Below are positions 3,322 through 53,497 of a stretch of 64,000 bases of DNA, piece by piece; positions within the stretch are counted from its first letter, which is position 1; every line of letters begins with the position of its first letter. The stretch comes from an uncultured Bacilli bacterium (GTDB lineage Bacteria; Bacillota_I; Bacilli_A; RF39; UBA660). The position numbers and the translations under genes were made by a program. The stretch is from contig CAKOLD010000003.1 of the NCBI GenBank assembly GCA_934096015.1, positions 2,640 through 66,639 of the forward strand, read 5' to 3'. The notes beneath the pieces are model-generated. The model did no database searches and had not been told where the DNA came from. It worked only from the letters and a program-made list of their open reading frames with translations.

Positions 3322-3762
3322 ATGAATAAAGGTTTTACTTTAGTAGAATTATTAGCCGTGTTAGCCATTATGAGTTTAGTAATAATAATAACAGCACCTG
3401 CTTATAATGGAATAAGTAATACAATAAAAGAAAATAGTTATAATAGTAAAATTAGTATGATGGAAAAATCTACAAAAACTTTTGTAAATAAATATCATAA
3501 AGATAAAGTTTATGATGGTGAAAATAATAAAACTCTATGTTTAAGTATTCCGTACTTAATAAGTAAAAACGTTTTTGCAGAAGATGAAAAAGACTCTGGA
3601 AAAATTACTAATCCTAAAGGAGGAAACTTTGAAGGATATTTAGAAGCAACATATGATATTGAAGAAAAAGAAATTATAACGAAGTTTAAAGAGTATGAAG
3701 AAGGTAAAGGATTTGATGATCTTACAAATACAGAATGTCCAGGAGGAAAATTAAAATTATGA
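3322..3762 (+). CDS. type IV pilin / pseudopilin-like protein (prepilin N-terminal methylation motif)
   Basis: N-terminus MNKGFTLVELLAVLAIMSLVIII carries the class III signal: G-1, F+1, E+5 and a hydrophobic helix. Two Cys residues in the C-terminal half. Confidence 0.7.
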   Translation: MNKGFTLVELLAVLAIMSLVIIITAPAYNGISNTIKENSYNSKISMMEKSTKTFVNKYHKDKVYDGENNKTLCLSIPYLISKNVFAEDEKDSGKITNPKGGNFEGYLEATYDIEEKEIITKFKEYEEGKGFDDLTNTECPGGKLKL

Positions 3763-11307: not shown

Positions 11308-11394
11308 ATGAAATATAATTTATTCGTAAAAAATCACTTCAAATCAAAAAACACTAAGGGTAACTTTAGTGTTTTTTATGTGGAGGTTAAATGA
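11308..11394 (+). other. 28-codon upstream ORF (MKYNLFVKNHFKSKNTKGNFSVFYVEVK) overlapping the prs-like start; possible leader peptide
   Basis: Strong RBS GAGGAG 8 nt upstream. Its 3' end contains the hairpin AACACTAA-gggtaact-TTAGTGTT followed by TTTTTT. Its TGA overlaps the ATG at 11391. Confidence 0.25.
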
Positions 11395-12473
11395 AAGAAA
11401 ATTTAGGATTAATTGTCTTAGACAATATTAAAGAAATAGGAAATGAAGTAAATGATTACCTTAATAAGTTTAGAAAAAATAAAGAGAATTACATTATTCC
11501 TATAAAACTAGACAGATTTGCAAATGGAGAAGGAAAAGCAAAAATATTAGAAACAGTAAGAGATAAAGATATTTACATTTTAACAGATATCGGTAATTAT
11601 GATATGACTTATGAAATGCATGGATTTTTAAACCACATGTCACCAGATGATCATTTCCAAGACATAAAAAGAGTAATTTTAGCAATGTGTGGCCATGCAA
11701 AAAAAATTACTTTAGTAATGCCATTACTTTATGAATCACGTCAACATCGCAAAAAAGGTAGGGAATCTCTAGACTGTGCTTATGGGCTACAAGAACTTTT
11801 GAAAATGGGAGTAAAAGAAATTATAACATTTGATGTCCATGATCCTAATGTTTGTAACTCAACACCATTACTAGCTTTTGAAAATTTTTATCCAACAAAT
11901 ATAGTTTTGGAAGATTTCATAATTAATAATAAACACAATCTTGATAATTTATTAATTGTAAGCCCAGATTTTGGAGCAATGGAAAGAGCCAGATACTTTG
12001 CAGAAATGTTAAAATGTGATGTAGGTGTTTTTTACAAAAGAAGAGATTTGTCAAAAGTTGTTAATGGTAAAAATCCTATAATTGAACATGCATACATGGG
12101 AGCAGATGTTAAAGGAAAAGATATAATTGTTGTAGACGATATGATTGCCTCAGGTGGATCAATGTTAGAAGTAGCAAAAGAGTTAAAAGAAAAAGGAGCA
12201 CATCACGTATATTTAAGTGCTACATTCGCTCTATTTACAGAAGGAATAGAAAAGTTTGAAAAAGCCTTTAACGATGGTTTATATGATAAACTATATACAA
12301 CTAATTTAACTTATGTTAAAAATGAAATTAAAAATAAAGAATGGTATCATGAAGTTAACTGTTCAAAGAAAATTGCAGAAATAATAAATACTTTAAATAA
12401 CGAAGAATCTATTTCTCATTTAATGAATGGTAAAGAAGAATTCTTTAAAAAAATTGAAAAAATAACTAAATAA
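11391..12473 (+). CDS. prs: ribose-phosphate pyrophosphokinase family protein (long, 360-aa form)
   Basis: PRPP-binding loop IIVVDDMIASGGS. N-domain motifs (DRFANGEGK, HDPNV) parallel Prs (RFSDGE, DLHA.Q). Confidence 0.65.
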   Translation: MKENLGLIVLDNIKEIGNEVNDYLNKFRKNKENYIIPIKLDRFANGEGKAKILETVRDKDIYILTDIGNYDMTYEMHGFLNHMSPDDHFQDIKRVILAMCGHAKKITLVMPLLYESRQHRKKGRESLDCAYGLQELLKMGVKEIITFDVHDPNVCNSTPLLAFENFYPTNIVLEDFIINNKHNLDNLLIVSPDFGAMERARYFAEMLKCDVGVFYKRRDLSKVVNGKNPIIEHAYMGADVKGKDIIVVDDMIASGGSMLEVAKELKEKGAHHVYLSATFALFTEGIEKFEKAFNDGLYDKLYTTNLTYVKNEIKNKEWYHEVNCSKKIAEIINTLNNEESISHLMNGKEEFFKKIEKITK

Positions 12474-12531
12474 TAAAAATTGAATAAAAAAACTCCTAAT
12501 CTCCAATTATATAAGGGAAAGGAGTTTTATT

Positions 12532-13308
12532 ATGAGTAAATATAAAGTGGACATAACAGGAATAAATACCAATAATTTAAAAGTATTAAAAAATAATGAA
12601 ATGCAAGTATTATTTGAAAAATATCACAAAGGAGATTTAGAGGCTAAAGAAGAATTAATAAATGGTAATTTGAAATTAGTTTTAAGTATTATAAAAAAAT
12701 ATAATAATGGAAAATATGATATGAATGATTTATTTCAAATAGGCTGTATAGGCCTTATAAAAGCAGTAGATAATTTTGATACTAGTATCGGAGTTATGTT
12801 TTCCACATATGCAGTTCCTTTAATTCTAGGAGAAGTTAAAAGATTTATTAGAGATTCTTCGGTGATACGTATCACAAGAAGTGTAAGAGATAACTCTTAT
12901 AAAATATTAAAATTCAAAGATGAATACACTGCCTTAAATGGATGTGAACCTACAAATGATGAAATATGCAAACATTTAGAAATATCAGAATATGATTTAT
13001 CTAATGCTATGGATAGTTTAAAAGAACCTATGAGTATTTTTGAACCAATATTTAACGATGGAGGAGATACCATTTATTTATTAGATCAAATTGCTGATAT
13101 CAAAAATGCCAATACAGATAGAGATATGTTAATAAGTTTAAGAAAAGCTCTATTTAAAATAAAAGAAAGAGAAAGAAGTATTTTAACAGATAGATACATT
13201 GTAGGAAAAACTCAAACAGAAATAGCCGAAGAACTAGGAGTTAGCCAAGCTCAAGTTAGTAGAATAGAAAAAAGTGCTATCAACAATGTAAAAAGATTAA
13301 TTAAATAA
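12532..13308 (+). CDS. sigG: sporulation sigma factor sigma-G
   Basis: Near-colinear with B. subtilis SigG: MSKYKVDITGINTNNLKVLKNNEM vs MSRNKVEICGVDTSKLPVLKNEEM; SIFEPIFNDGGDTIYLLDQIAD vs SLFEPIYNDGGDPIYVMDQISD; GVSQAQVSRIEK. Confidence 0.8.
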   Translation: MSKYKVDITGINTNNLKVLKNNEMQVLFEKYHKGDLEAKEELINGNLKLVLSIIKKYNNGKYDMNDLFQIGCIGLIKAVDNFDTSIGVMFSTYAVPLILGEVKRFIRDSSVIRITRSVRDNSYKILKFKDEYTALNGCEPTNDEICKHLEISEYDLSNAMDSLKEPMSIFEPIFNDGGDTIYLLDQIADIKNANTDRDMLISLRKALFKIKERERSILTDRYIVGKTQTEIAEELGVSQAQVSRIEKSAINNVKRLIK

Positions 13309-16851: not shown

Positions 16852-18483
16852 GTGGTAATGAATAAATTAAAACAAAACAAATTATTATTGCCACTATACT
16901 ACATATTATTGCCATTTAAACCAATACTAATATTTTTTATGTACGTTTCTTTAGGAGTATATTATTCTATGTACGGTTTAATATATCCCTTTATACTTTT
17001 ATATAATGTTTTATCATCTTCACTTTATAATATTTATAAAAATAGCAAAAAAGAAAAAGATATTGCTGAAATAAAAGAAACAGTTAATTTAAATATTGAT
17101 GAAAAAATGCATGCAAATGCAAAAAGAGATAAAGAATTAGCTAAAATCGAAAAAGCAAAAAAACAAGAAAATGCAAAAAAGTTAAATGCTAAATTAGAAT
17201 TAGAAAAACAACAACTATTAAGTGAACTTGACAAAACAGAAAATATTAGAAGCGAAAAACCAATAACATTTAAATATACAGCAAGAAACTCTGATGGTAA
17301 AAAAGTTACAGGAATTTTTTCTGCATATTCTAAAACTGAAGTATTTAACTATTTAGAAGGAGAAAACTATAACGTATATAAAATAGAAACCAATAAATTA
17401 ATAGAATTTATGTACGGAAATCAACAGTTTTTAACCAAAAAAATGTCTACAAAAGATTTAATATTTTGGTTAACCCAATTATCAACTTATTTAAAAAGTG
17501 GAATAACTCTAACAGATTCTATGAAAATCTTAAGTAAACAAATGGGTAAAAATGATATAAATAAGAAAAGAATTTTTGATTCAATAATTTATAATTTAAC
17601 CTTAGGAGAAAGTTTTTCAGACGCTTTAGATAAACAAAATAATACTTTTCCTCCATTATTAGTAAATATGATTAAAGCTGCGGAAGCAACCGGAGAATTA
17701 GAACAAACATTAGATGACATGGCAGAATACTATACTGAAACTGAACAAACTAGAAAACAAATGATTAGTGCTCTAACGTATCCATCAGTAATTTTAATAA
17801 TAGCAGTCGCTGTTGTTTCATTTATGTTACTTTACATTGTTCCTCAATTTGAAGGAATATACTCATCAGCAGGTGTTGTGATAAATGGTTTTACAGCCTT
17901 TGTCTTAGCAGCTAGTCAATTTTTAAAAAATAATATTTTTATAATACTATTAATGATATTATTAATAATTCTTGCAATTATTTTAATGTATCGAAAAATC
18001 AAAGCTTTTAGAGAAGCCTTCCAAATATTTGCTATGAAATTACCAATTATTGGTAAAGTTATAATTTATAAAGAATTAACCATATTTACCAAAACTTTTG
18101 CATCTTTATTAAAAAATAACGTATTTATTACGGAAAGTATGGATATTTTATCTAAAATAACCAATAATGAAGTATACAAAAAAATTATGATAAACACAAT
18201 TACTAATATAGCAAGAGGCGACAAAATATCAGACTCATTTAAAGATCATTGGGCCATTCCTGATGTTGCTTATTTCATGATAGTAACAGGAGAATCAACA
18301 GGAGAACTTGCAAGTATGATGAGTAAAGTAAGTACATACTATCAAGAAGAACACAGGGCGGTAATATCAACTCTTAAATCATTTATTGAACCTGCTATAA
18401 TAGTACTACTAGCAATTGTAGTTGGAGGAGTAGTATTAGCTATTATTATTCCAATGTTTAGTTTATATTCACAAATATCATAG
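16852..18483 (+). CDS. type II secretion / type IV pilus platform protein (GspF/PilC/ComGB family) with an atypical N-terminal extension
   Basis: Two T2SSF repeats and 3 TM helices in the C-terminal 400 aa. About 130 extra N-terminal residues: hydrophobic hairpin plus a K/E-rich coiled coil. A likely ATG is at 16858 after AAAGAGG. Confidence 0.75.
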   Translation: MVMNKLKQNKLLLPLYYILLPFKPILIFFMYVSLGVYYSMYGLIYPFILLYNVLSSSLYNIYKNSKKEKDIAEIKETVNLNIDEKMHANAKRDKELAKIEKAKKQENAKKLNAKLELEKQQLLSELDKTENIRSEKPITFKYTARNSDGKKVTGIFSAYSKTEVFNYLEGENYNVYKIETNKLIEFMYGNQQFLTKKMSTKDLIFWLTQLSTYLKSGITLTDSMKILSKQMGKNDINKKRIFDSIIYNLTLGESFSDALDKQNNTFPPLLVNMIKAAEATGELEQTLDDMAEYYTETEQTRKQMISALTYPSVILIIAVAVVSFMLLYIVPQFEGIYSSAGVVINGFTAFVLAASQFLKNNIFIILLMILLIILAIILMYRKIKAFREAFQIFAMKLPIIGKVIIYKELTIFTKTFASLLKNNVFITESMDILSKITNNEVYKKIMINTITNIARGDKISDSFKDHWAIPDVAYFMIVTGESTGELASMMSKVSTYYQEEHRAVISTLKSFIEPAIIVLLAIVVGGVVLAIIIPMFSLYSQIS

Positions 18484-31814: not shown

Positions 31815-33113
31815 ATGCTATTCTTAATAACAATACTATTTTTTACATTACTATCAACAAATACATATGCCCAAACTTTTTATAGCGATTATGAACCAGT
31901 AACAAACTTTTTTACAAAAGAAGATGATTTACATAAAATAGAAATAGTCACTTTATATAATAGATTTTATGTTGAAAATAACAATATAGGATATTATCCA
32001 GAAACAAAGAAAATTAAAAACAGCAAAATTGATTATAATAATTTTATAACTAAAATCAACTACAGTTTAATGTACGATGAACTTACAACGAATTATGAAA
32101 CATTATGTGAAAACAATAATTATTTTTTAAATAAAATAGAATTTAAAAATTTAAGAAAAGATTTAAAACTAAATGAAATAATTTTAAAATACAACAAAGA
32201 AATTATTAATTATAATTTAACTATTTCCAATTATAATGGAAAAATAGATAATTTATTTAATAATGATTTAAATGATGATGAAGTCATAATCAAAAGTGGT
32301 AGTGCTTTAATTTTAATGCTAGAAGAACCAGTTATGTTAGAAGATTTAGAAATAGATTTTTTCTCTCAAGAAAGAGATTCTGAAAAATATTACTTTGAAT
32401 TAGTTTTGAATGAAGAAAAGGGAAATACTCTAGTTTTTGAAAAGAATTTAAATATAAAAATAAGTTTTAAAAATGATTATATAGATATATTAAATAACAA
32501 AAAAATATATACAATAAGAAAATGTTTAAGTTATTATACAAGAGAACAAAAACTATACATGTTTTATCAGCCACTAATAAAATATACAGATGAATATTTA
32601 GAAGTAAATAGTGACAATAATTTAGATTACCAAAAATCAAAAATAATTGAAAAAAAATATGAAAGAAATAAACTTGTTTTAAGCGATAATATAATTATAT
32701 ATGACTTAGAAGAACTTGCTTCTAAAGTTATTTTAAAAACTAATAATAATTTTACAATAAAATATAACATAAATACAAATTATTCTGGAATATATGATTT
32801 AAATATTTATTACAAAGATAAACTAATTGGTAATCAGAAAATAGAATACATAAAAAAAGAAATGAAGGAGCAAACTAAAAATGATTATAATATTCCTACA
32901 ACAAGAAAAATAGAAAAAGTTAAAACTACAGAAATACAAACTAAGATTAAAAAAATTACTACCTCCAGTAGAAATATTACAACTAAAATAAAATCGCAAG
33001 AAATAGATGATAAAGATTATATTACAAAAAGTATCATAATTATTTTAATAATAATTCTTTCTATTTTTGAATTTATTTTACTTTACGTAAAACGCAAATA
33101 CTATAATAAGTAA
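31815..33113 (+). CDS. hypothetical secreted protein, Asn/Lys-rich, with a C-terminal membrane anchor
   Basis: Signal peptide ending AYA-Q; C-terminal TM helix plus a KRKYYNK stop-transfer tail. No recognisable domain. Confidence 0.45.
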   Translation: MLFLITILFFTLLSTNTYAQTFYSDYEPVTNFFTKEDDLHKIEIVTLYNRFYVENNNIGYYPETKKIKNSKIDYNNFITKINYSLMYDELTTNYETLCENNNYFLNKIEFKNLRKDLKLNEIILKYNKEIINYNLTISNYNGKIDNLFNNDLNDDEVIIKSGSALILMLEEPVMLEDLEIDFFSQERDSEKYYFELVLNEEKGNTLVFEKNLNIKISFKNDYIDILNNKKIYTIRKCLSYYTREQKLYMFYQPLIKYTDEYLEVNSDNNLDYQKSKIIEKKYERNKLVLSDNIIIYDLEELASKVILKTNNNFTIKYNINTNYSGIYDLNIYYKDKLIGNQKIEYIKKEMKEQTKNDYNIPTTRKIEKVKTTEIQTKIKKITTSSRNITTKIKSQEIDDKDYITKSIIIILIIILSIFEFILLYVKRKYYNK

Positions 33114-33116
33114 TTT

Positions 33117-33123
33117 TGTCGAA
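33117..33123 (+). promoter_or_regulatory. Spo0A-box-like heptamer TGTCGAA upstream of the spoIIAA-like gene
   Basis: Exact 7/7 match to the 0A-box consensus, 53 nt upstream of the ATG at 33176. The overlapping CGAATAT also resembles a sigma-H -10. Confidence 0.3.
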
Positions 33124-33175
33124 TATATTTAAAAAACATTATTAAATAATTATATTAATGAGGAGGCAACAAAAG

Positions 33176-33445
33176 ATGCTCAAAATATTTATGCAATATA
33201 AAGAAGGGAGATTGATTGTAGAACTAAAAGGGATTTTGAATTATTTGACATCACGAAAGATTGAAAAATATTTAAAATTAGTGATAAAAAAACACAAAAT
33301 TAAATACTTGACTTTCAATACAGCAAACTTAATAGGAATAGATAAAATTGGAATTAATAGTTTAAAGAAAAGCATTAAAGAAGTTCAAAAAAATTCTGGA
33401 GAATTTAATTTTACACAAAATTCTCAAATAAAATTAATAGGATGA
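33176..33445 (+). CDS. STAS-domain anti-sigma-factor-antagonist-like protein (SpoIIAA-like) lacking the conserved phospho-serine
   Basis: By-eye alignment with SpoIIAA shows LIGIDKIGIN in place of LSFMDSSGLG. ATG at 33176 has GGAGG 9 nt upstream. The gene overlaps the sigma gene by ATGA. Confidence 0.6.
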   Translation: MLKIFMQYKEGRLIVELKGILNYLTSRKIEKYLKLVIKKHKIKYLTFNTANLIGIDKIGINSLKKSIKEVQKNSGEFNFTQNSQIKLIG

Positions 33446-34113
33446 GGAAAATGGACGAACAAAGTGCAATTGAAGAAACTAAATTATTAATATACAAAAG
33501 TGCTCATAAACTAAAAAGTAAACTTAATAATTTAGATATTAATGATTTATTTCAAGCAGGATGTATTGGAGTTTTAAAAGCATTAAAAAATTATCAACCA
33601 GATGGTTCTACTAAGTTTTCAACATATGCCTATAAATATATACTTGGAGAAATGTATGAACTTGCTAATATTTCTAGGGATATTAAGTTAAACAAAGTAT
33701 ATTTAAAATCAAAAAAATTAATTGAAAAAGCTCGGTCGGTATTAGCTCAAAAATTAAATAGATACCCAACAATTGAAGAAATTAGTACTTTTACTGAACT
33801 TGAACCTGAGTTTGTAGAAGAAATAATAAATATTAGTTATGATACTATTAGTTTAGATGAAGAACCTGAAACATTAACTGATGGGTACAATTTATATAAT
33901 TATATTGGAACGACAGAAGATGTAGATACACAAATTCTAATTAATGATTCCTTAGAAGAATTAGAAGAACCATTAAAGTCAATAATAAATTATAGATATT
34001 ACCAAGATTTGACTCAAGCAGAAATAGCTGAAATTATGGGATTAAGCCAAGTAAAAGTATCAAGATTAGAGAATAAAGGAAAACAAAAAATCAAAGAGTA
34101 TATCTCTGCATAA
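33442..34113 (+). CDS. sigF: sporulation sigma factor, sigma-F-like (divergent, 223 aa)
   Basis: DLFQAGCIGVLKAL...FSTYA (region 2) and YYQDLTQAEIAEIMGLSQVKVSRLE (region 4.2) resemble SigF. It sits in the spoIIA-to-spoVA position. Confidence 0.6.
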   Translation: MRKMDEQSAIEETKLLIYKSAHKLKSKLNNLDINDLFQAGCIGVLKALKNYQPDGSTKFSTYAYKYILGEMYELANISRDIKLNKVYLKSKKLIEKARSVLAQKLNRYPTIEEISTFTELEPEFVEEIINISYDTISLDEEPETLTDGYNLYNYIGTTEDVDTQILINDSLEELEEPLKSIINYRYYQDLTQAEIAEIMGLSQVKVSRLENKGKQKIKEYISA

Positions 34114-34139
34114 ATATTAAAAAATTCTTCATAATAAAA

Positions 34140-34592
34140 ATGGAGGATTTTTTAATGAAAAAAGAAGAATATTTAAAATTAGTAAATGAAATAACTCCAA
34201 AACCAGATAGAATAAAAAATTGTTTATATGCATTTCTAACTGGGGGAGTTCTTGGTACCTCATGTGAAATAATTAGATTAATTCTAATTAATGTATTCAA
34301 ATTATCTAAAAGTGAAGCATGTATGTGGATAGGTCTAATATTAATAACAGGCGCTTGTTTTTTAACTATAATTCATAAATTTGATCATTTAGTTGCTAAA
34401 TATCAGGCAGGATTAATAGTTCCAACAACTGGATTCGCTCACTCGGTTCAAAGCACTATGTTAGATTATAAAAAAGACGGCTTAATAACAGGCATAGGTT
34501 CAAACGCTTTTAAATTAGCAGGTAGTGTAATAGTTTATGGAGTTGTAAGTTCCTTTATTTTAGTGATTGTGAAGGTGATATTAGGTGGCTAG
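34140..34592 (+). CDS. spoVAC: stage V sporulation protein AC
   Basis: SpoVAC signature N-terminus and 4 TM helices; synteny with spoVAD and spoVAE. Confidence 0.8.
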   Translation: MEDFLMKKEEYLKLVNEITPKPDRIKNCLYAFLTGGVLGTSCEIIRLILINVFKLSKSEACMWIGLILITGACFLTIIHKFDHLVAKYQAGLIVPTTGFAHSVQSTMLDYKKDGLITGIGSNAFKLAGSVIVYGVVSSFILVIVKVILGG

Positions 34593-35547
34593 TTTTTCAT
34601 TTAAAAACGTTTTTATTAATAATTTCTATTCAATAGCAGGGATCAATGAAAACAATGGAAATTTAAAAAACGTTAATTTATATTTAAAAGATTATTTATT
34701 TGAAGAAAAAACATTTGAAAATGCTGAAATTAAAATGCAAAAAATAGTTATAAATAATTTAATTGCCAAAAATAATAAGCCTGAAATCGTTGTTGGCGGT
34801 GAGTTATCTAATCAATTATCAATTACTAGTTCAAGTTTAAAAAATAGCAATATTCCTTTTTTAGGACAGTACTCAGCATGTGCAACTTTTGTTGAGAATT
34901 TAATAACTTTAGCTTTATTAATAGATACAAAAAAAGTAAAAAATGGTTTATGTATAACTAGCAGTCATAATTTAACTAGTGAAAGGCAATTTAGATACCC
35001 TATAGAATACGGAGCACCAAAGCCACAATATTCAACATTTACAACTACGGGAGCTGTAGGTACTTTTTTATCAAAAACAATGACAGGTGTGAGAGTAACA
35101 AATGCAACAATTGGTAAAGTAATAGATTATGGCGTTAAAGATGCATACAATATGGGAGCAGTAATGGCTCCTGCTGCTGCAGATACGCTAGTAACTCATC
35201 TAACAGAAACTAAAACATCAATTAGTGATTACGATCTAATATTAACTGGTGATTTAGGAAAAATTGGAATGGATTTATTCCAGATAATTTTAAAAAAGGA
35301 TCATAATATTACATTAAAAAATTACATTGATGCTGGTGCAGTTATTTATAATAAAGAACAAGAAATATATTCTGGTGGAAGCGGACCAGTTTGTTTGCCA
35401 CTAGTATTATTTAACAAAATTCTACAAACTAAAAAATATAAAAAGATTCTAGTAATTGCAACAGGGTCATTACACAATCCTACACTAGTTAATCAAAAAA
35501 ATAGTATTCCAGCAATTGCTCACGGTATAACATTGGAGGTGCAATAA
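34585..35547 (+). CDS. spoVAD: stage V sporulation protein AD (thiolase-like fold)
   Basis: About 320 aa with GQYSACATF and other SpoVAD motifs; synteny. Confidence 0.8.
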   Translation: MASFSFKNVFINNFYSIAGINENNGNLKNVNLYLKDYLFEEKTFENAEIKMQKIVINNLIAKNNKPEIVVGGELSNQLSITSSSLKNSNIPFLGQYSACATFVENLITLALLIDTKKVKNGLCITSSHNLTSERQFRYPIEYGAPKPQYSTFTTTGAVGTFLSKTMTGVRVTNATIGKVIDYGVKDAYNMGAVMAPAAADTLVTHLTETKTSISDYDLILTGDLGKIGMDLFQIILKKDHNITLKNYIDAGAVIYNKEQEIYSGGSGPVCLPLVLFNKILQTKKYKKILVIATGSLHNPTLVNQKNSIPAIAHGITLEVQ

Positions 35548-35897
35548 TGACAATCATTTATTCTTTTCTATTTTGTGGAATAGTGTGTTTAATTGGTCAA
35601 ACTATTTTAGATAACACAAAACTGACTCCAGGACATTTAACAAGTATATATGTTGTTATTGGTGCTTTATTAGGATTCTTAAACATATATGACAAAATAA
35701 TAGAAGTAGTAGGAGCAGGAGCAACAATACCAATAATTAATTTTGGGAATAGTCTATTTACTGCAAGTCTTATGGGATTTAAAACAAATGGATTTTTAGG
35801 AATATTTTCAAATATGTTTGATACTTCCTGTTTATCTCTTAGTGCAACTATAATTTTCTCATTTATATTCACTCTTTTTAGCTATCCAAAAGACTAA
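35547..35897 (+). CDS. spoVAE: stage V sporulation protein AE (SpoVAEb-type membrane protein)
   Basis: 116-aa membrane protein, homologous in arrangement to SpoVAC; synteny. Confidence 0.75.
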   Translation: MTIIYSFLFCGIVCLIGQTILDNTKLTPGHLTSIYVVIGALLGFLNIYDKIIEVVGAGATIPIINFGNSLFTASLMGFKTNGFLGIFSNMFDTSCLSLSATIIFSFIFTLFSYPKD

Positions 35898-36570: not shown

Positions 36571-36637
36571 AAATAACAAGTGGAAATGGAACTCAAAAAA
36601 ATCCATACGTAGTAAATTAACAAAAGTTGAAATGATT

Positions 36638-37666
36638 TCATTTCAACTTTTTAATATTTATTATAAAAAATATAATTAAACACCCCAGTAATAAATAAGC
36701 TTCATATTTGTATAAAAACAGTAACCAAGTTATTCTTTTAAACGTTGTAAAATGTAAAAGTATTAAAATTAGAAAAAGATATATTGGAAACAAATACTTT
36801 TTATTACATAGATTTTGTATAGTAACTTTTAATGATAAGGCCGTAGTTAATGAAAAAACGATGTAGATCATTATCCAAAAAAATGCTGTAATATTTTCTA
36901 TATTATTTATAAAGTTAAAAACACTAACTCTTTTTAAAACAATATATTCAGGATATCTATATAAATTAACTAAATCTGTACCCATTACGCCAACAGTTAA
37001 TAAGAATGCAACAAGAATAAGTATACTGGCGACAAAATAAGTTTTTACAATACTATATTTTTTTATCCCATTAACTTCGGTAGGAGAATATAAACTTAAA
37101 AGTAAAAGTGGAGAAGTACTATAAAAAGCATAATTGCACGCTTCTTTTAAAATTATTTGCCATTTTGTATTAAATAATGGTAAAAAATTATCAATTTTAA
37201 TTTGAAAGCTAACTGTTGCAATTATAATACTTACTAAAATTAAGCAAAGTATTAATAGTAGAATAGAAATTCTTCCTAAAACTTCTTTATCTTTACTTCC
37301 ATAAATCATTAGAAAAATAAGTGGAAGACAAATAATAAAAGGACTTAATTTTGTTAAATATATTGAAACAATTAAATTAGTTAACGTGCTTAAACAGACT
37401 ATTGTATAGAAGGTAATAATAATTATATAGCATATATTTCTAAATTTATTATCATCAACAAACAAAGCAGTAGAAGAACTAATCCATATTTTTGAAAACA
37501 TTAAAACTATTATTGATCCCATCAAAATACCTAAAATTACACTTATCCAAAATGATTCTTTACAAGTACGTACTATATTTGATAAACCAATACCAAAAAA
37601 CATAGTTATTGTAAGTAAAAATATAATGGATTGAAATTGTTTTAAACTAATCTTTTTCATTGTCAC
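36638..37666 (-). CDS. spore germination protein, GerAB/amino-acid-permease-like subunit
   Basis: Ten TM helices and a Spore_permease-like N-terminus. Last gene of an A-C-B germinant receptor operon. Confidence 0.75.
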   Translation of the reverse strand: MTMKKISLKQFQSIIFLLTITMFFGIGLSNIVRTCKESFWISVILGILMGSIIVLMFSKIWISSSTALFVDDNKFRNICYIIIITFYTIVCLSTLTNLIVSIYLTKLSPFIICLPLIFLMIYGSKDKEVLGRISILLLILCLILVSIIIATVSFQIKIDNFLPLFNTKWQIILKEACNYAFYSTSPLLLLSLYSPTEVNGIKKYSIVKTYFVASILILVAFLLTVGVMGTDLVNLYRYPEYIVLKRVSVFNFINNIENITAFFWIMIYIVFSLTTALSLKVTIQNLCNKKYLFPIYLFLILILLHFTTFKRITWLLFLYKYEAYLLLGCLIIFFIINIKKLK

Positions 37667-38747
37667 CTCTAACAGGATCCATTAATAATCCTTTTTTTGT
37701 AATTGTATTTTTTACCTCAACAACATAATTGTATTCTTTCCAATCTTTTTCTATTTTCCCGTATTTTTTATAAATTTTATTATTGATTCCTAAAACATCA
37801 GAATTATTTTCTTTTAAAAAATTAATTAAATTAATTACATCTTTTTTGATATTATCTTCTATTTTTTTATCTAATTTAAAAATATTTTTTGTACTAATAG
37901 TGTCATATTCTGAATTAACTTCATCAAGTCTACTAGTCGTAGCTATATTTATAGTTATATTATTTTTATCAACTTTAATTTTAGTTTTAGAATCAAATAT
38001 TTTAGCAACTAAGTAACCAGAGTTTTCATTTATTCTATAATATAATGCATTATTATTACCATTTAATAAGCTGATACTCCTAGTTTGAATATTATCAAGT
38101 TTATTTACCATTTTTGATCCTTTAAAAATTCCAACCTTGTATATTTCTATATAGCCTTCAGTAATTTTGATAAAAGGTAAAAATATATCTTTGTTAGGAT
38201 TAACATACTGTTCTAATAATTCAAAAAAACGATTATATATAAAAGCACTATTGTTTAATTGAGTGTTATTGAATAAGGATACTATTGCATCACCAACAAT
38301 TTCATTTTTAATTTCTTTAGATTTTAATAACTCACTCGGTTTTTCTTTTTCAGAAATTGTTATATAGGAAACAAAAGAGTAATCAGTGCTTCTACTTAAA
38401 TAATCCATAATTCCACTTATACCTTCACTTGCTAACTCAGCATCAATAATTATTCCTTCAATATGAGTGAAGAACAATAACTTTTCACTAACAAAAGAAG
38501 CATTATTAACAGCTTCATCTAAACTTTTCCCTTCACCAGCAATTACAATTCTTTTCTTTCTTGATGCTCCACTTCCAGGTTCTTTTTCCTCTTTAAATAT
38601 TTCCAAAGATACTAAATAATTTTCTTTTTCTTTTTCAATTCCCATAACTGAAACGATTGCTAAATCATTAAGTTCATTGTAATTGCTACAACCAGTACAA
38701 AGTAACAAAGAAAAACAAATTAATATAATTAAAATTATCCTTTTCAT
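37647..38747 (-). CDS. germinant receptor C subunit lipoprotein (Ger(x)C)
   Basis: Lipobox LLLCTGC; about 360 aa; position between the A and B subunits. Confidence 0.8.
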   Translation of the reverse strand: MKRIILIILICFSLLLCTGCSNYNELNDLAIVSVMGIEKEKENYLVSLEIFKEEKEPGSGASRKKRIVIAGEGKSLDEAVNNASFVSEKLLFFTHIEGIIIDAELASEGISGIMDYLSRSTDYSFVSYITISEKEKPSELLKSKEIKNEIVGDAIVSLFNNTQLNNSAFIYNRFFELLEQYVNPNKDIFLPFIKITEGYIEIYKVGIFKGSKMVNKLDNIQTRSISLLNGNNNALYYRINENSGYLVAKIFDSKTKIKVDKNNITINIATTSRLDEVNSEYDTISTKNIFKLDKKIEDNIKKDVINLINFLKENNSDVLGINNKIYKKYGKIEKDWKEYNYVVEVKNTITKKGLLMDPVRGDNEKD

Positions 38748-40177
38748 GAGTCCCTCTTTTTAACAATATTATTTGATAACATCTTACTTCTTTTATTATC
38801 ATTTTCACTTTTTGCTTCAAATAGTGTGCTTTTTATATAACTAAGATCAAATGGTTGAATAGGAAAAAAGTATGGATATCCAAAAGAATTATTAGAACAT
38901 AAAGATATTAAAAGAAATACAATAGATAAACTTATTCCATACAGTCCCCAAAATGCTGCAAAAAGCAAAAAAATAAATCTCCATGTTCTAATGCTGGCAA
39001 TTGTTTCAAGATCAGAAAACATTAAACTTGCTATAAAAGTAATTGCAATAACTATTATCATAATAGGACTAACTATACCAGCAGAAACTGCTGCTTCTCC
39101 TAAAACTAAAGCTCCCAATATTGAAATAGCTGATCCATAGCTACTAGGAAATCTTATATCACTTTCTCTTAATATTTCACACGTAATAAGCATTATTAAA
39201 CATTCTACAATAGCAGGGAAGGGAACACCTTCTCTTTGTGTTGAAAAACTTATTAAAAGTTCAAGAGGTATTGCTTCTTGATTAAAATTAGTTAAAGCAA
39301 CATATATTCCAGGAGTAACAATACCTAAAATAAAACACAGTAATCTCAAAAACTTAAGAAAATTAGTATTAATACTTTTAGAATAATTATCAACAATAGG
39401 ATTAATAAAATCAGCAAAAAAAGCTGGAACTATTATTGCAAATGGAGAATTATCAACGAGTATAACTACCTTTCCTAAAAGTAAATTTTTACAAACTACA
39501 TCAGGTCTTTCAGTAATCTGGGTACTAGGAAAAACATTTTTATTCTCATTTTCAATCAATTTTTTTAAATTACCAGCATCCAATATTCCATCAATATCAA
39601 TTCCATTTAAAGACTTACAAATTTTATTAACTAAACTTTTTTTAACCACATTATCTACATATATTACAGAGCATGTAGTTTTTGTTAATCTTCCAATATT
39701 ATAATTTTTATTTTTTAAATGACTATCAGAAATTCTTCTCTTTATAAGCCCCATATTTTGTTGAATATTTTCTACAAAAGCATCTTTTGGACCATACAAA
39801 CTAGGTTCAGTACTAGGACTACTTATACTTCTTGTTAACTCAGCTTTAGTTTCACATGCATAAATACATTCATCTGAAATAACAATACTAAATCCATGAT
39901 TTAAATAAAACTCAATTAAATTACTATTTTCTAATTTTATAGTATGAGGAGTAGGAATAAAATCCAAAATATTTTTTGCTTTTGAATTCTCAGTTAATTT
40001 TTTTAATATAAAATCATTTATTTGAGTAGAACTACATAACGTTTCCAAATAAACTAAATAAACATATTTATTTCTATTTTTAATTTTGTGAATTATTAAA
40101 TCAGAACAATTATTAAATTCTTCTTTAATATTAGAAATTAATTCTTCCATAGTCCTCACCATTATTATTTTGACCAA
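38744..40177 (-). CDS. germinant receptor A subunit (GerAA family)
   Basis: About 480 aa; soluble N-domain plus a C-terminal 5-TM region with GerA motifs (PSTQITERPD, FLRLLC). Confidence 0.8.
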   Translation of the reverse strand: MVKIIMVRTMEELISNIKEEFNNCSDLIIHKIKNRNKYVYLVYLETLCSSTQINDFILKKLTENSKAKNILDFIPTPHTIKLENSNLIEFYLNHGFSIVISDECIYACETKAELTRSISSPSTEPSLYGPKDAFVENIQQNMGLIKRRISDSHLKNKNYNIGRLTKTTCSVIYVDNVVKKSLVNKICKSLNGIDIDGILDAGNLKKLIENENKNVFPSTQITERPDVVCKNLLLGKVVILVDNSPFAIIVPAFFADFINPIVDNYSKSINTNFLKFLRLLCFILGIVTPGIYVALTNFNQEAIPLELLISFSTQREGVPFPAIVECLIMLITCEILRESDIRFPSSYGSAISILGALVLGEAAVSAGIVSPIMIIVIAITFIASLMFSDLETIASIRTWRFIFLLFAAFWGLYGISLSIVFLLISLCSNNSFGYPYFFPIQPFDLSYIKSTLFEAKSENDNKRSKMLSNNIVKKRDS

Positions 40178-50429: not shown

Positions 50430-51494
50430 ATGAACGGTCTACAAATGGACGCAATAGCAAAAATAAAAGTAATCGGTGCCGGTGGAGGCGGGTGTAACGC
50501 TGTAAACCGTATGATAGAATCAGGGGTAAAAGGTGTAGAATTCATAGTTGCAAATACTGATTTGCAAGTATTAAATGCTTCTAAAGCTGAAATAAAATTG
50601 CAAATAGGAGAATCAATTACAAATGGTTTAGGAGCAGGAGCAAATCCAGAAATTGGAAGAGAAGCCGCTTTAGAAAGTAAAACAGAAATATCAGAAGCTT
50701 TAAAAGGCGCTGATATGGTATTTGTAACTTGTGGTATGGGAGGCGGAACTGGAACAGGTGCCGCACCAGTAATAGCAGAAATAGCCCAAGATTTAGGAGC
50801 ACTAACAGTTGGAATAGTAACAAAACCTTTTAAATTTGAAGGTAAAAAAAGAATGGAACAAGCAGTTTTAGGATTAGACGAGTTAAAAAAACACGTTGAT
50901 ACCCTTATTGTTATTCCTAATGATAGATTAAGAGATATTATTGATAAATCTACTCCAATGTTAGAAGCCTTTAAAGAAGTAGACAATGTTTTACATAGAG
51001 GTGTTCAATCAATTTCAGACCTAATTGCAGTATCTGGTTTAGTCAATCTAGACTTTGCTGACGTAAAAGCAGTAATGGAAAAACGAGGAAATGCTTTAAT
51101 TGGAATTGGTCTAGGTGTTGGAGAAAATAGAGCAATTGAAGCCGCTAAACAAGCAGTATCAAGCCCTCTATTAGAAACAAGTATAACAGGAGCTACAGAT
51201 GCAATAATAAATGTTACAGGTGGAAATTCCTTAACATTGTTTGAAGCAGAAGATGCAGCTGAAGTTGTTAGAGCTAGCGCTAACACTGATATAAACATCA
51301 TATTCGGTGCAGTTATCAATGAAAATTTAAATGATGAAGTAATCGTTACCGTAATTGCTACTGGATTTGATGAAGAAAATCCAAGTATGGAATACACAGA
51401 TTACACTACAAGCCAAACAAGAAGTAGTAAATCTATAACAGATGACAGCGATTTTGATATTCCTCCCTTTTTAAGAGATAGAGATGATTTTTAA
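50430..51494 (+). CDS. ftsZ: cell division protein FtsZ
   Basis: [29 protein letters not shown] tubulin signature, NVDFAD T7 loop. Confidence 0.9.
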
Positions 51495-51515
51495 AAGATA
51501 ATTTTTATCTTTTTT

Positions 51516-51549
51516 TTTGACATTTTTTTTATGAGTAATAAGCTAAAAT
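51516..51549 (+). promoter_or_regulatory. candidate spoIIG-type promoter: TTGACA -35 overlapping a near-0A-box, 22-nt spacer, TAAAAT
   Basis: TTGACA at 51516-51521 (TTTGACA is 6/7 of the TTCGACA 0A box), a 22-nt spacer, TAAAAT at 51544-51549. It follows the ftsZ terminator AAGATAA-ttt-TTATCTT plus a T-run. Confidence 0.3.
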
Positions 51550-51553
51550 ATAA

Positions 51554-52339
51554 TTGGTGGTTAAATTGACCATATATATTGATTTAGTAATATTTATTAA
51601 TTTTATGTTTGATTTTGATCTTTTACTAAGCTTAAATATGCTTCTAAAAAGAAGAACAAAAATATGGAAAATAGTAATTGGATCCTTAATTGGAAGTTTA
51701 AGTCTTCTTACTTTATTTTTAAATCTAAATAGTTTAATGCTTTTTATTTTTAAATTTTTAATAAGTGTAGTTATGATATTAGTAACATTTAAAAATAATT
51801 CTAGACAAGAATTTATTGATAACATGGTTTATTTATATCTTTTAAGTATAATTTTAGGAGGAACTTTATATTTGCTAAATGATCACTTTAGTTATAAAAG
51901 CTCTGGATTAATTTTTATAAATAAAGATTATAATATAAATTTAATCATAATATTAATTATTACACCACTGTTACTTATAGGATATAATATACAATTAAAA
52001 AAATTTCAATTAAACTATTCTAAATATTATAAATTAGACATATTATTAAGTGGAAAAATTATAAATTTAACCGCTTTTTTAGATACTGGTAATAAACTTA
52101 TCGATCCTATAACAAAAAAACCAATAATTATAATAAATCAAAATGTATTATCAGATAATTATCATTATTTTTTTGTACCTTATACTACAATAAATGGTTC
52201 AAGTATTTTAAAATGCATAAAACCAGATTATATTGTTATAGACAATAAAGTAATTAAAAATGTTTTAGTAGGGATAAGTGAACAACCAATAAAAATACCA
52301 GGTGTTGATTGTATCTTAAACGAAAGGATATTTGTATGA
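51554..52339 (+). CDS. spoIIGA: sigma-E processing aspartic peptidase SpoIIGA
   Basis: Five N-terminal TM helices (IYIDLVIFINFMFD...LLKRR) and catalytic FLDTGN. The likely start is the TTG at 51566 after GGTGG. Confidence 0.8.
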   Translation: MVVKLTIYIDLVIFINFMFDFDLLLSLNMLLKRRTKIWKIVIGSLIGSLSLLTLFLNLNSLMLFIFKFLISVVMILVTFKNNSRQEFIDNMVYLYLLSIILGGTLYLLNDHFSYKSSGLIFINKDYNINLIIILIITPLLLIGYNIQLKKFQLNYSKYYKLDILLSGKIINLTAFLDTGNKLIDPITKKPIIIINQNVLSDNYHYFFVPYTTINGSSILKCIKPDYIVIDNKVIKNVLVGISEQPIKIPGVDCILNERIFV

Positions 52340-53022
52340 AATTTTTAAAAAAATTATTAAAACTATTAAAAAAAGACAATGAATGTTTTTTTGTAGGAAG
52401 TACCGATATTCTACCGCCACCTCTTTCAAGCGAAGAGGAACTTCATTATTTAATGCTTGCCAAACAAGGTGATGAAAATGCTAAAAATAAATTGATAGAA
52501 CATAATTTAAGACTAGTTGTATTTTTGGCAAAAAAATATGATAATACAAAAACCGATATTGAAGACTTAGTAAGCATTGGCTCAATAGGTTTAATAAAAG
52601 GCATAAATACTTACAAAATAGATAAGAACATTAAATTAGCAACATATGCAAGTAGATGTATAAGTAATGAGATATTAATGTTTTTAAGAAAAAATAAAAA
52701 AAGAAAAACCGAAATAAGTTTTGAAGATGCTTTAAATTATGATGCTGAAGGTAATGAGTTGCATCTTGAAGACATATTAGGTACTGAAGAAGATGTAGTA
52801 TATAAAGAATTTGAACAAGGACTCGATAAAGTTGCCTTAGAAAAAGAATTAAATCTTTTAAATGACCGAGAAAAACAAATTATGACTCTAAGATATGGTT
52901 TAAATAACACAGATGAATTTACTCAAAAAGAAGTAGCAGAAATGTTAGGAATTAGTCAATCATATATTTCTAGGATAGAAAAGAAAGTAATTAAAAAACT
53001 AAGAACAATCATGAAAACATAA
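52336..53022 (+). CDS. sigE: sporulation sigma factor sigma-E (pro-sigma-E)
   Basis: FVGSTDILPPPLSSEEE, NLRLVVFLAKKY, KLATYASRCISNEILMFLR and GISQSYISRIEKKVIKKLR are nearly colinear with SigE. ATG at 52336 overlaps the spoIIGA stop. Confidence 0.85.
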   Translation: MKFLKKLLKLLKKDNECFFVGSTDILPPPLSSEEELHYLMLAKQGDENAKNKLIEHNLRLVVFLAKKYDNTKTDIEDLVSIGSIGLIKGINTYKIDKNIKLATYASRCISNEILMFLRKNKKRKTEISFEDALNYDAEGNELHLEDILGTEEDVVYKEFEQGLDKVALEKELNLLNDREKQIMTLRYGLNNTDEFTQKEVAEMLGISQSYISRIEKKVIKKLRTIMKT

Positions 53023-53068
53023 TTTACTTTATTCTTTTTTTTTGCTATTATTTAAAATAGGTGAGACT

Positions 53069-53497
53069 ATGAAAAAGTTAAATATTTATGTTATTCACGG
53101 AGAAAAATTTAACTACAAAGAAGAATTTTATAAACCTTTACTTTTAAGCAAAATTGCTGAGCACAATCTTATTCTCCCACGCACAGAAAGATATAGAGAA
53201 GTTTACGCTAAAGATCTTATAAACAAAAGCGACTTCATCATAGTAAATTTAACAAATGCAACTTTTAGTGTATATCTTGAAACAAAATGGGCGAAGAAAG
53301 CAGAAAAGGATATTCTATTTATAACAAAAAATAATTCAAAATGTTCTTTTCTTTTAAATAAATATAAAAAACAGGCTCTTAAATATAATACAATAGAAGA
53401 AGAAAAAGAAATAATAGAGCAATATATAAAGCAGAACATAAATAATTTAAGCACTGAAGAAACAGACGGTACAATAAATTTAGGAAGTATAAATTAA
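53069..53497 (+). CDS. hypothetical protein
   Basis: ORF with RBS AGGTGAG. It occupies the position where sigG sits in Bacillus. Confidence 0.4.
   Translation: MKKLNIYVIHGEKFNYKEEFYKPLLLSKIAEHNLILPRTERYREVYAKDLINKSDFIIVNLTNATFSVYLETKWAKKAEKDILFITKNNSKCSFLLNKYKKQALKYNTIEEEKEIIEQYIKQNINNLSTEETDGTINLGSIN

Follow-up and report, generated by a model that had tools for sequence, protein, structure and literature searches.

The present analysis concerns a sporulation locus of an uncultured Bacilli bacterium (contig CAKOLD010000003.1 of assembly GCA_934096015.1), of which a continuous stretch of 64,000 nucleotides (nt) with approximately 25% G+C, termed the window, was studied. Between positions 33176 and 35897 of the forward (+) strand, five closely packed genes code for a small STAS domain protein, a sigma-F-like factor, SpoVAC, SpoVAD and SpoVAE. 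This arrangement resembles the canonical spoIIA operon of Bacillus subtilis, clostridia and Turicibacter sanguinis, where the STAS gene spoIIAA, spoIIAB and sigF are consecutive, spoVAC/AD/AE follow directly 3', and the promoter contains a Spo0A box. In contrast to the canonical operon, the window locus lacks spoIIAB, and the phospho-acceptor serine of the STAS protein is replaced. Moreover, the STAS protein comprises only 89 amino acids (aa) and is devoid of the C-terminal helices alpha3 and alpha4 of the SpoIIAA domain, and the sigma factor is truncated at its N-terminus. The features of the locus are the following:

33117..33123, + strand: Spo0A box TGTCGAA, the sole exact copy in the window
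33128..33133, + strand: -35-like hexamer TTTAAA of a putative sigma-A-type promoter, from a consensus scan with a 17-nt spacer
33151..33156, + strand: -10-like hexamer TATATT of the same putative promoter, from the same consensus scan
33160..33166, + strand: ribosome-binding site GAGGAGG of the STAS gene, read from the sequence, 9 nt 5' of the ATG at 33176; a G-rich site is placed likewise in relatives
33176..33445, + strand: minimal STAS protein, SpoIIAA homologue (Pfam STAS, PDB alignment, AlphaFold2 model, Foldseek)
33442..34113, + strand: divergent, N-terminally short sigma-F-like factor (Sigma70 r2/r3/r4, TIGR02885, 1L0O_C, synteny)
34140..34592, + strand: spoVAC (Pfam SpoVAC_SpoVAEB, 83.5 bits; TIGR02838, 125 bits)
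34585..35547, + strand: spoVAD (Pfam SpoVAD, 329 bits)
35547..35897, + strand: spoVAE, SpoVAEB type (TIGR02839, 112.7 bits)

The product of the second gene contains the Sigma70 regions r2, r3 and r4, all above the Pfam cut-offs. Its best NCBIfam matches are the SigB/F/G family (TIGR02980, 133 bits) and then SigF (TIGR02885, 124.7 bits), and sigma F in complex with SpoIIAB is the top match in the PDB (1L0O_C, 90 bits, E=1.4e-24; runner-up 51 bits). The equivalog level of SigF is missed by a wide margin (124.7 bits versus a cut-off of 321.45, i.e., 39% of the cut-off), whereas SigG and SigE, which are encoded by separate genes in the window, score near their own cut-offs (330 of 372 and 325 of 339 bits, respectively). 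The sigF-like gene is distinct from these two and is located between the STAS gene and spoVA, a synteny found in most of 84 related loci. Based on similarity, synteny and exclusion (separate SigG and SigE), the factor is classed as an unusually diverged orthologue of sigma F, the identity that the initial annotation of the window had proposed, and its role as the first forespore-specific sigma factor is predicted accordingly from the sequence.

Compared to SigG of the window and SigF of B. subtilis, the sigma factor lacks approximately 35 N-terminal residues, and in the PDB alignment its residue 13 pairs with residue 37 of 1L0O_C. The shortening noticed initially is therefore genuine. The protein comprises 223 aa if translated from ATG 33442 or, more likely, 220 aa from ATG 33451, the start used by homologues and by the gene call of P0001 (98% identical to the window sigma factor). 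The choice of start matters for the ATGA overlap described earlier, which exists at 33442, where the ATG overlaps the STAS stop codon (33443-33445), but which gives way to a separation of 5 nt if translation starts at the favoured ATG 33451. Since the two genes either overlap or are 5 nt apart, there is no room for a gene in between: the STAS gene directly precedes the sigF-like gene, and no spoIIAB intervenes.

The STAS protein matches Pfam STAS with 30.4 bits (cut-off 22.6), and misses the equivalog level of TIGR02886 (spoIIAA) with 26.8 bits versus a cut-off of 114.75. Its only significant relatives of solved structure are SpoIIAA of Geobacillus and Bacillus (1TH8_B, 1AUZ). In a gapless HMMER alignment to these structures, the residues D56-K57-I58-G59 lie opposite the D-S-S-G of SpoIIAA, which places Lys57 at the position of the phospho-acceptor Ser58; MAFFT alignments concur. 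The essentials of the initial annotation, namely a STAS gene abutting a sigma-F-like gene, a substituted phospho-acceptor serine and spoVAC/AD/AE downstream, are all borne out by these analyses and by the family matches listed above. An AlphaFold2 model of the STAS protein, which is of only moderate confidence because the underlying alignment consists of two sequences, has a mean pLDDT of 72.9 and the order b1-b2-a1-b3-a2-b4. Helix alpha2 of the model starts with K57, at the spot that Ser58 occupies in SpoIIAA, and Foldseek superposes the model on SpoIIAA 1THN_B (taken from the SpoIIAB complex) with a TM score of 0.76 and a root-mean-square deviation of 1.9 Å. A word-indexed homologue search with the window protein returned a single near-identical protein and nothing further (P0121, 89 aa, 97% identity, from another assembly). 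A longer STAS open reading frame (ORF) from 33158 was rejected as the true start, as it begins within the promoter and ribosome-binding region; ATG 33176 follows the GAGGAGG motif.

A further likeness exists to the RsbV-RsbW-SigB module, which also combines a STAS protein with a sigma factor of the SigB/F/G family, and the RsbV fold (6M36) is matched by the window protein. Unlike that module, however, the locus has neither RsbW nor a PP2C phosphatase gene in its vicinity, and its context consists of spoVA, a germinant receptor (Ger) operon and a 0A box rather than stress genes.

Kinase gene and phosphorylation site in related loci

The comparison comprises 84 related loci, 80 of which were obtained from a scan of one genome per species, and 4 were added from genomes with precomputed Pfam tables. 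Flanks of 10 kb were examined around the loci, amounting to 1.3 Mb for the 80 scanned ones. In 55 of these 80 loci the STAS gene overlaps the sigma gene or ends at most 22 nt from its start, and most of them run on into spoVAC-AD-AE; the remaining arrangement type has the order sigma-spoVA without STAS. Two of the 4 additional loci belong to the window's own sub-branch, and the order found there is RNase J - ORF - STAS (91 aa) - sigma - spoVA - Ger operon. Another large sub-branch (L083 and L084, 8872-10651; L065, 1834-3662) is arranged differently: a 234-aa sigma factor, a STAS protein of 113 aa and then the sigma-F-like gene, with rRNA/tRNA-modification genes in place of spoVA downstream and cotE nearby.

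The window sigma factor has hundreds of relatives of approximately 215 aa in gut metagenomes, which are named “Bacilli”, “Mollicutes” or “Tenericutes” bacterium where the source names them. The exact sequence of the window protein did not turn up in public assemblies. A second query, the most SigF-like clade member (from L065), yielded 1872 proteins at E<=1e-10, and the 120 matches listed for it all measure at most 232 aa. This query was aimed at canonical neighbours that retain spoIIAB, and the short matches listed do not locate the evolutionary boundary of the loss. A fusion of STAS and sigma domains does not occur among the 240 homologues listed from the sigma searches (all 154-232 aa). The lineage bearing the operon is probably the GTDB order RF39 or its close relatives, a placement with which the composition, the source labels and the spoIIGA-sigE genes of the window agree.

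SpoIIAB or RsbW was searched by tblastn with the B. subtilis sequences as queries. Nothing better than E=0.16 was obtained in the window, and nothing at E<0.01 in the 80 scanned loci. A HATPase_c-type match was likewise lacking in the 30 window ORFs scanned against Pfam or NCBIfam (the other window ORFs were covered by tblastn only), and in the Pfam tables of the 4 additional loci. Overall, no HATPase_c-like gene is found within 10 kb of the operon in any of the 84 loci, and no kinase domain is present in the ORFs upstream of those loci that lack STAS. The SpoIIE family has no match among the window ORFs scanned either. These results are in line with a survey of gene content across RF39, RFN20 and ML615J-28 (Microb Genom 2024), where spoIIAB and spoIIE are reduced or absent in RF39, while this order retains many sporulation genes including spoIIGA, also present in the window as spoIIGA-sigE, and several core ones are reported missing (PMC10868615). 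The supplementary tables of the survey hold no per-gene data.

The position of the former phospho-acceptor was compared in 56 STAS sequences, i.e., those of 55 related loci and the window. The Ser58 column contains E (13), N (10), S (9), D (6), K (4), L (4), T (2), M (2), I (2), R (2), G (1) and A (1), whereas the flanking Asp (D57) and Gly (G60) are each kept in 53 of the 56 sequences. The serine column is thus unconstrained, a pattern that would be expected of a helix N-terminal position which is no longer phosphorylated.

Where retained, the STAS gene is a working gene, since it is under strong purifying selection: in closely related pairs the ratio of non-synonymous to synonymous substitution rates (dN/dS) is 0.03-0.15 for STAS versus 0.02-0.25 for sigma, similar or lower (most pairs are saturated, with dS around 1, and close pairs alone are informative). 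Yet, approximately 23 loci lack the STAS gene, and no remnant of it was revealed when they were searched in six frames with a profile. On a rough neighbour-joining tree of the sigma proteins, the loci without STAS fall in approximately six separate places, and in 21 of the 23 tested the 0A-box promoter stands directly before the sigma gene. Convergent changes in the sigma factors of these lineages were sought as a sign of direct STAS-sigma interaction, and none of 43 conserved columns is altered in at least three of the six groups.

The putative Spo0A-type promoter and the genomic setting

The exact Spo0A box TGTCGAA at 33117-33123, reported at the outset to lie 53 nt upstream, is indeed found 53 nt 5' of the ATG at 33176. 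On the window alone it is not significant, as 2.0 copies are expected by chance in 64 kb and one is present, and its significance derives from conservation. In 72 of 79 related loci, a TG(T/A)CGAA box in the same orientation is located 28-67 nt (mostly 41-67 nt) 5' of the first operon gene, compared to a background of 0.07 per 250 nt, and its position is kept regardless of whether the first gene is STAS or sigma. When 75 unique upstream regions are aligned on the box, the consensus TtTTGTCGAA-N4-TTTAAa-N17-TATAtT-N~8-GG emerges, with the -10-like hexamer at a fixed distance from the box. In the window, TGTCGAA conforms to the 0A motif TGNCGAA and lies 4 nt 5' of TTTAAA-17 nt-TATATT, and this succession of box, -35 and -10 is kept in 72 of 79 loci. 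The conserved elements are consistent with a sigma-A-type promoter, whose -35 hexamer is abutted by a predicted Spo0A box. A sigma-H promoter reading of TGTCGAAT was considered and rejected, because it leaves the conserved TTTAAA-17-TATATT downstream unexplained.

The spoIIA promoter of B. subtilis is sigma-H-dependent, and a sigma-A-type promoter with a 0A box more closely resembles those of spoIIG and spoIIE. The conserved promoter described here, with its 0A box beside the -35 element, thus differs from the canonical spoIIA operon. So does the overlap of spoVAC with the 3' end of the sigF-like gene, which was observed in several relatives (L001, L003, L008, L045, L051 and others). In the window, the two genes are separated by a gap of 26 nt (34113-34140), in which no terminator-like site was seen. 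Due to this lack of a terminator-like site and the overlap in relatives, spoVAC/AD/AE may be co-transcribed with sigF from the Spo0A promoter, at least partly, rather than from a late forespore promoter alone.

Other sporulation genes of the window are intact:

12532-13308: SigG (330 bits, cut-off 372)
36638-40177, - strand: GerA-type germinant receptor operon
50430-53022, + strand: ftsZ-spoIIGA-sigE (SigE gene 52309-53022; 325 bits, cut-off 339)

SigK was not seen in the window. The sigG gene is located 3' of a PRPP synthetase gene (both in the region 11391-13308, + strand), approximately 39 kb from spoIIGA-sigE, to which it is adjacent in B. subtilis. No family match was obtained for the 151-aa product of the next gene behind sigE (53042-53497), which is followed by SepF and a DivIVA-like gene.

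Directly 5' of the operon, an ORF of 432 aa (31815-33113, + strand) encodes a protein with an N-terminal signal peptide and a C-terminal membrane anchor, for which neither Pfam nor NCBIfam offers a match. Many related loci have a member of the same fast-evolving, clade-specific family in this place, flanked by RNase J and the STAS gene; a profile of 15 family members matches the window ORF at E=5e-38. On the other side, approximately 700 nt without an ORF of at least 60 aa extend from spoVAE to a perfect 13-bp hairpin (36622-36651) with T-runs on both strands, probably a bidirectional terminator that separates spoVA from the Ger receptor operon, which runs towards it. An Rfam scan of the window yielded one tRNA only.

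The window harbours two further peculiarities. Ribosomal protein L20 (45567-46085, + strand; 172 aa) carries an extra C-terminal Rho_N/SAP-like domain of approximately 35 aa (Pfam Rho_N, E=3e-9), which is unusual for L20. In addition, type IV pilus or competence-pilus genes (3322-3762 and 16852-18483, + strand) are present in this small-genome organism, coding for a prepilin that carries an N-methylation motif and for a platform protein of the PilC/GspF type, which is extended at its N-terminus by approximately 135 aa.

A proposed loss of the partner switch and competing explanations

In our assessment, the best supported reading, held with moderate confidence, is that the phosphorylation-based partner switch was truly lost in evolution, which left the lineage without a kinase/anti-sigma gene, without an acceptor serine and, as reported, without SpoIIE. 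The locus would then be the orthologous spoIIA-spoVA locus of a fast-evolving, genome-reduced gut Bacilli lineage, where spoIIAB disappeared from the operon and most probably from the rest of the genome as well. Without a kinase, constraint on the phospho-acceptor serine of SpoIIAA would have been lifted, as exemplified by Lys57 in the window. Sigma F would have shed its approximately 35 N-terminal residues and diverged far faster than SigG and SigE, with relaxed constraint on those regions that had served SpoIIAB binding, and SpoIIAA would likewise have diverged fast, its gene then being repeatedly deleted in several sub-lineages. Control over sigma F levels would lie mainly with Spo0A~P, which might activate the sigma-A-type promoter through the 0A box abutting the -35 element. 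The STAS protein would represent a phosphorylation-independent, dispensable accessory, presumably translationally coupled to sigma F, and, more speculatively, it may bind sigma F directly or another partner via the conserved alpha2 face. The non-canonical control suggested from the window alone has gained support from the 84 loci without HATPase_c within 10 kb, the free serine column, the repeated STAS loss and the RF39 survey (PMC10868615).

Several points weigh against a complete loss of the switch. Purifying selection on STAS, together with the conserved Asp-x-x-Gly at the start of alpha2, suggests that the protein still binds a partner, possibly an unlinked anti-sigma factor. In canonical systems, the start of alpha2 in SpoIIAA is the face contacting SpoIIAB. 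Since loss of spoIIAB is deleterious in B. subtilis, some replacement control of sigma F would be expected. Moreover, a sub-branch comprising L037, L038, L042, L043 and close relatives keeps a serine at the site, without an adjacent spoIIAB, which could be due to chance or hint at persisting phosphorylation. The genome-wide absence of spoIIAB in the clade rests on a KEGG-orthologue survey (PMC10868615), and such a survey might miss a diverged SpoIIAB, because the proteins of the clade evolve fast, as judged from the sigma factor (125 bits versus 321). Finally, the organisms of the clade are uncultured, sporulation has not been observed in them, and their placement in RF39 is inferred.

The same observations that speak for a remaining partner favour a possibly highly diverged anti-sigma factor of the SpoIIAB/RsbW type encoded elsewhere in the genome, an alternative already named in the initial annotation, with STAS as a non-phosphorylatable antagonist that is regulated otherwise, and this we regard as rather unlikely. 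It would account for the selection on STAS and for the Asp and Gly kept beside the former phosphosite, and the modelled STAS fold superposes on SpoIIAA from the SpoIIAB complex. Phosphorylation-independent STAS antagonists are known: RsfA of Mycobacterium tuberculosis acts outside canonical serine-phosphorylation control. The SigF-UsfX-RsfA/RsfB system of this organism also pairs a sigma-F-family factor with a STAS antagonist, and one of the structures matched by the window STAS is the UsfX-RsfB complex (8IH8). In contrast to the loci described here, however, M. tuberculosis has kept the HATPase_c-type anti-sigma factor UsfX, while such a gene was found neither within 10 kb of the operon in the 84 loci nor in the window, and the survey found spoIIAB reduced or absent in RF39 (PMC10868615). 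Furthermore, STAS was deleted independently some six times, and none of the 43 conserved sigma positions examined shows a change that would compensate for this; such losses are difficult to explain if STAS were essential for antagonizing a resident anti-sigma factor. A non-orthologous replacement, i.e., an unrelated anti-sigma factor or inhibitor, possibly STAS itself acting on sigma F, which holds sigma F inactive until the septum forms, appears improbable. In each of the 56 loci with a STAS gene, this gene overlaps the sigma gene or lies no more than 22 nt from it, STAS is under selection, and B. subtilis genetics lead one to expect some control of sigma F. However, no conserved candidate adjoins the operon, the sole conserved neighbour being the extracytoplasmic, membrane-anchored protein encoded upstream; the STAS-less lineages exhibit no convergent change in sigma F; STAS-sigma fusions are lacking among the 240 homologues listed (154-232 aa); and we know of no precedent for a STAS domain that binds a sigma factor directly.

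A defunct sporulation programme, of which the module is a decaying relic, would be compatible with the reduced genome, with the very divergent sigma F and STAS proteins, and with the several core sporulation genes that the survey lists as missing (PMC10868615). Yet, over 80 species have intact ORFs, dN/dS values are low (0.02-0.25 for sigma, 0.03-0.15 for STAS), the 0A-box promoter is conserved, and SigG, SpoIIGA-SigE, spoVAC/AD/AE and the GerA-type receptor operon of the window are intact, which together render a relic very unlikely. An assembly or binning artefact, where spoIIAB was dropped by misassembly, is scarcely conceivable: the junction is shared by 84 loci from independent assemblies, and other assemblies contain near-identical proteins (P0001, 98%; P0121, 97%). 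No supporting evidence for an artefact was found, and misassembly as the cause of the spoIIAB gap, a caveat of the initial annotation, is excluded on account of the shared junction.

The proposed loss of the phosphorylation-based switch can be carried further. Tentatively, and with considerably less confidence than in the loss itself, we propose that a very large, widespread gut Bacilli lineage sporulates without the SpoIIAA~P/SpoIIAB/SpoIIE switch, with sigma F controlled by Spo0A-dependent transcription alone and aided, where STAS is retained, by this protein acting directly and free of phosphorylation. If true, a three-protein switch would have collapsed to a two-protein module, or to one protein where STAS is gone.

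Relation to published work and implications

Partner switching by SpoIIAA, SpoIIAB and SpoIIE is the textbook account of the first compartment-specific gene expression, and to our knowledge the three proteins are counted among the universal core of sporulation. A comparison of cultured spore-formers found spoIIAA, spoIIAB and spoIIE conserved in every lineage, and Turicibacter, a related gut spore-former, possesses all three spoIIA genes (PMC13492147). The mere fact that RF39 lacks spoIIAB and spoIIE has been published before, in the form of a presence/absence table of KEGG orthologues, which does not extend to operon structure, loss of the phospho-serine, STAS losses, sigma F divergence, the Spo0A promoter or sigma F control (PMC10868615). 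The literature searched contains no account of the operon anatomy, of a clade-wide loss of the phospho-serine with the flanking motif kept, or of a minimal STAS protein of 89-91 aa; nor does it describe repeated STAS deletions, a fast-evolving sigma F next to conserved SigG and SigE, or the conserved 0A-box promoter.

In a species-rich gut clade, Spo0A-driven sigF, sigE/spoIIGA, sigG, spoVA and the genes for germinant receptors are retained under purifying selection, without the kinase gene and the phosphorylation site and, reportedly, without the phosphatase. Pipelines that predict sporulation from lists of core genes will misjudge abundant gut taxa of this clade. The clade also offers a naturally “minimal” system in which the purpose of the switch can be studied, with a STAS protein of 89-110 aa and a sigma F of approximately 215 aa as a testable pair. 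If these bacteria sporulate, forespore-specific activation of sigma F would be reachable by other means, or it would not be strictly needed.

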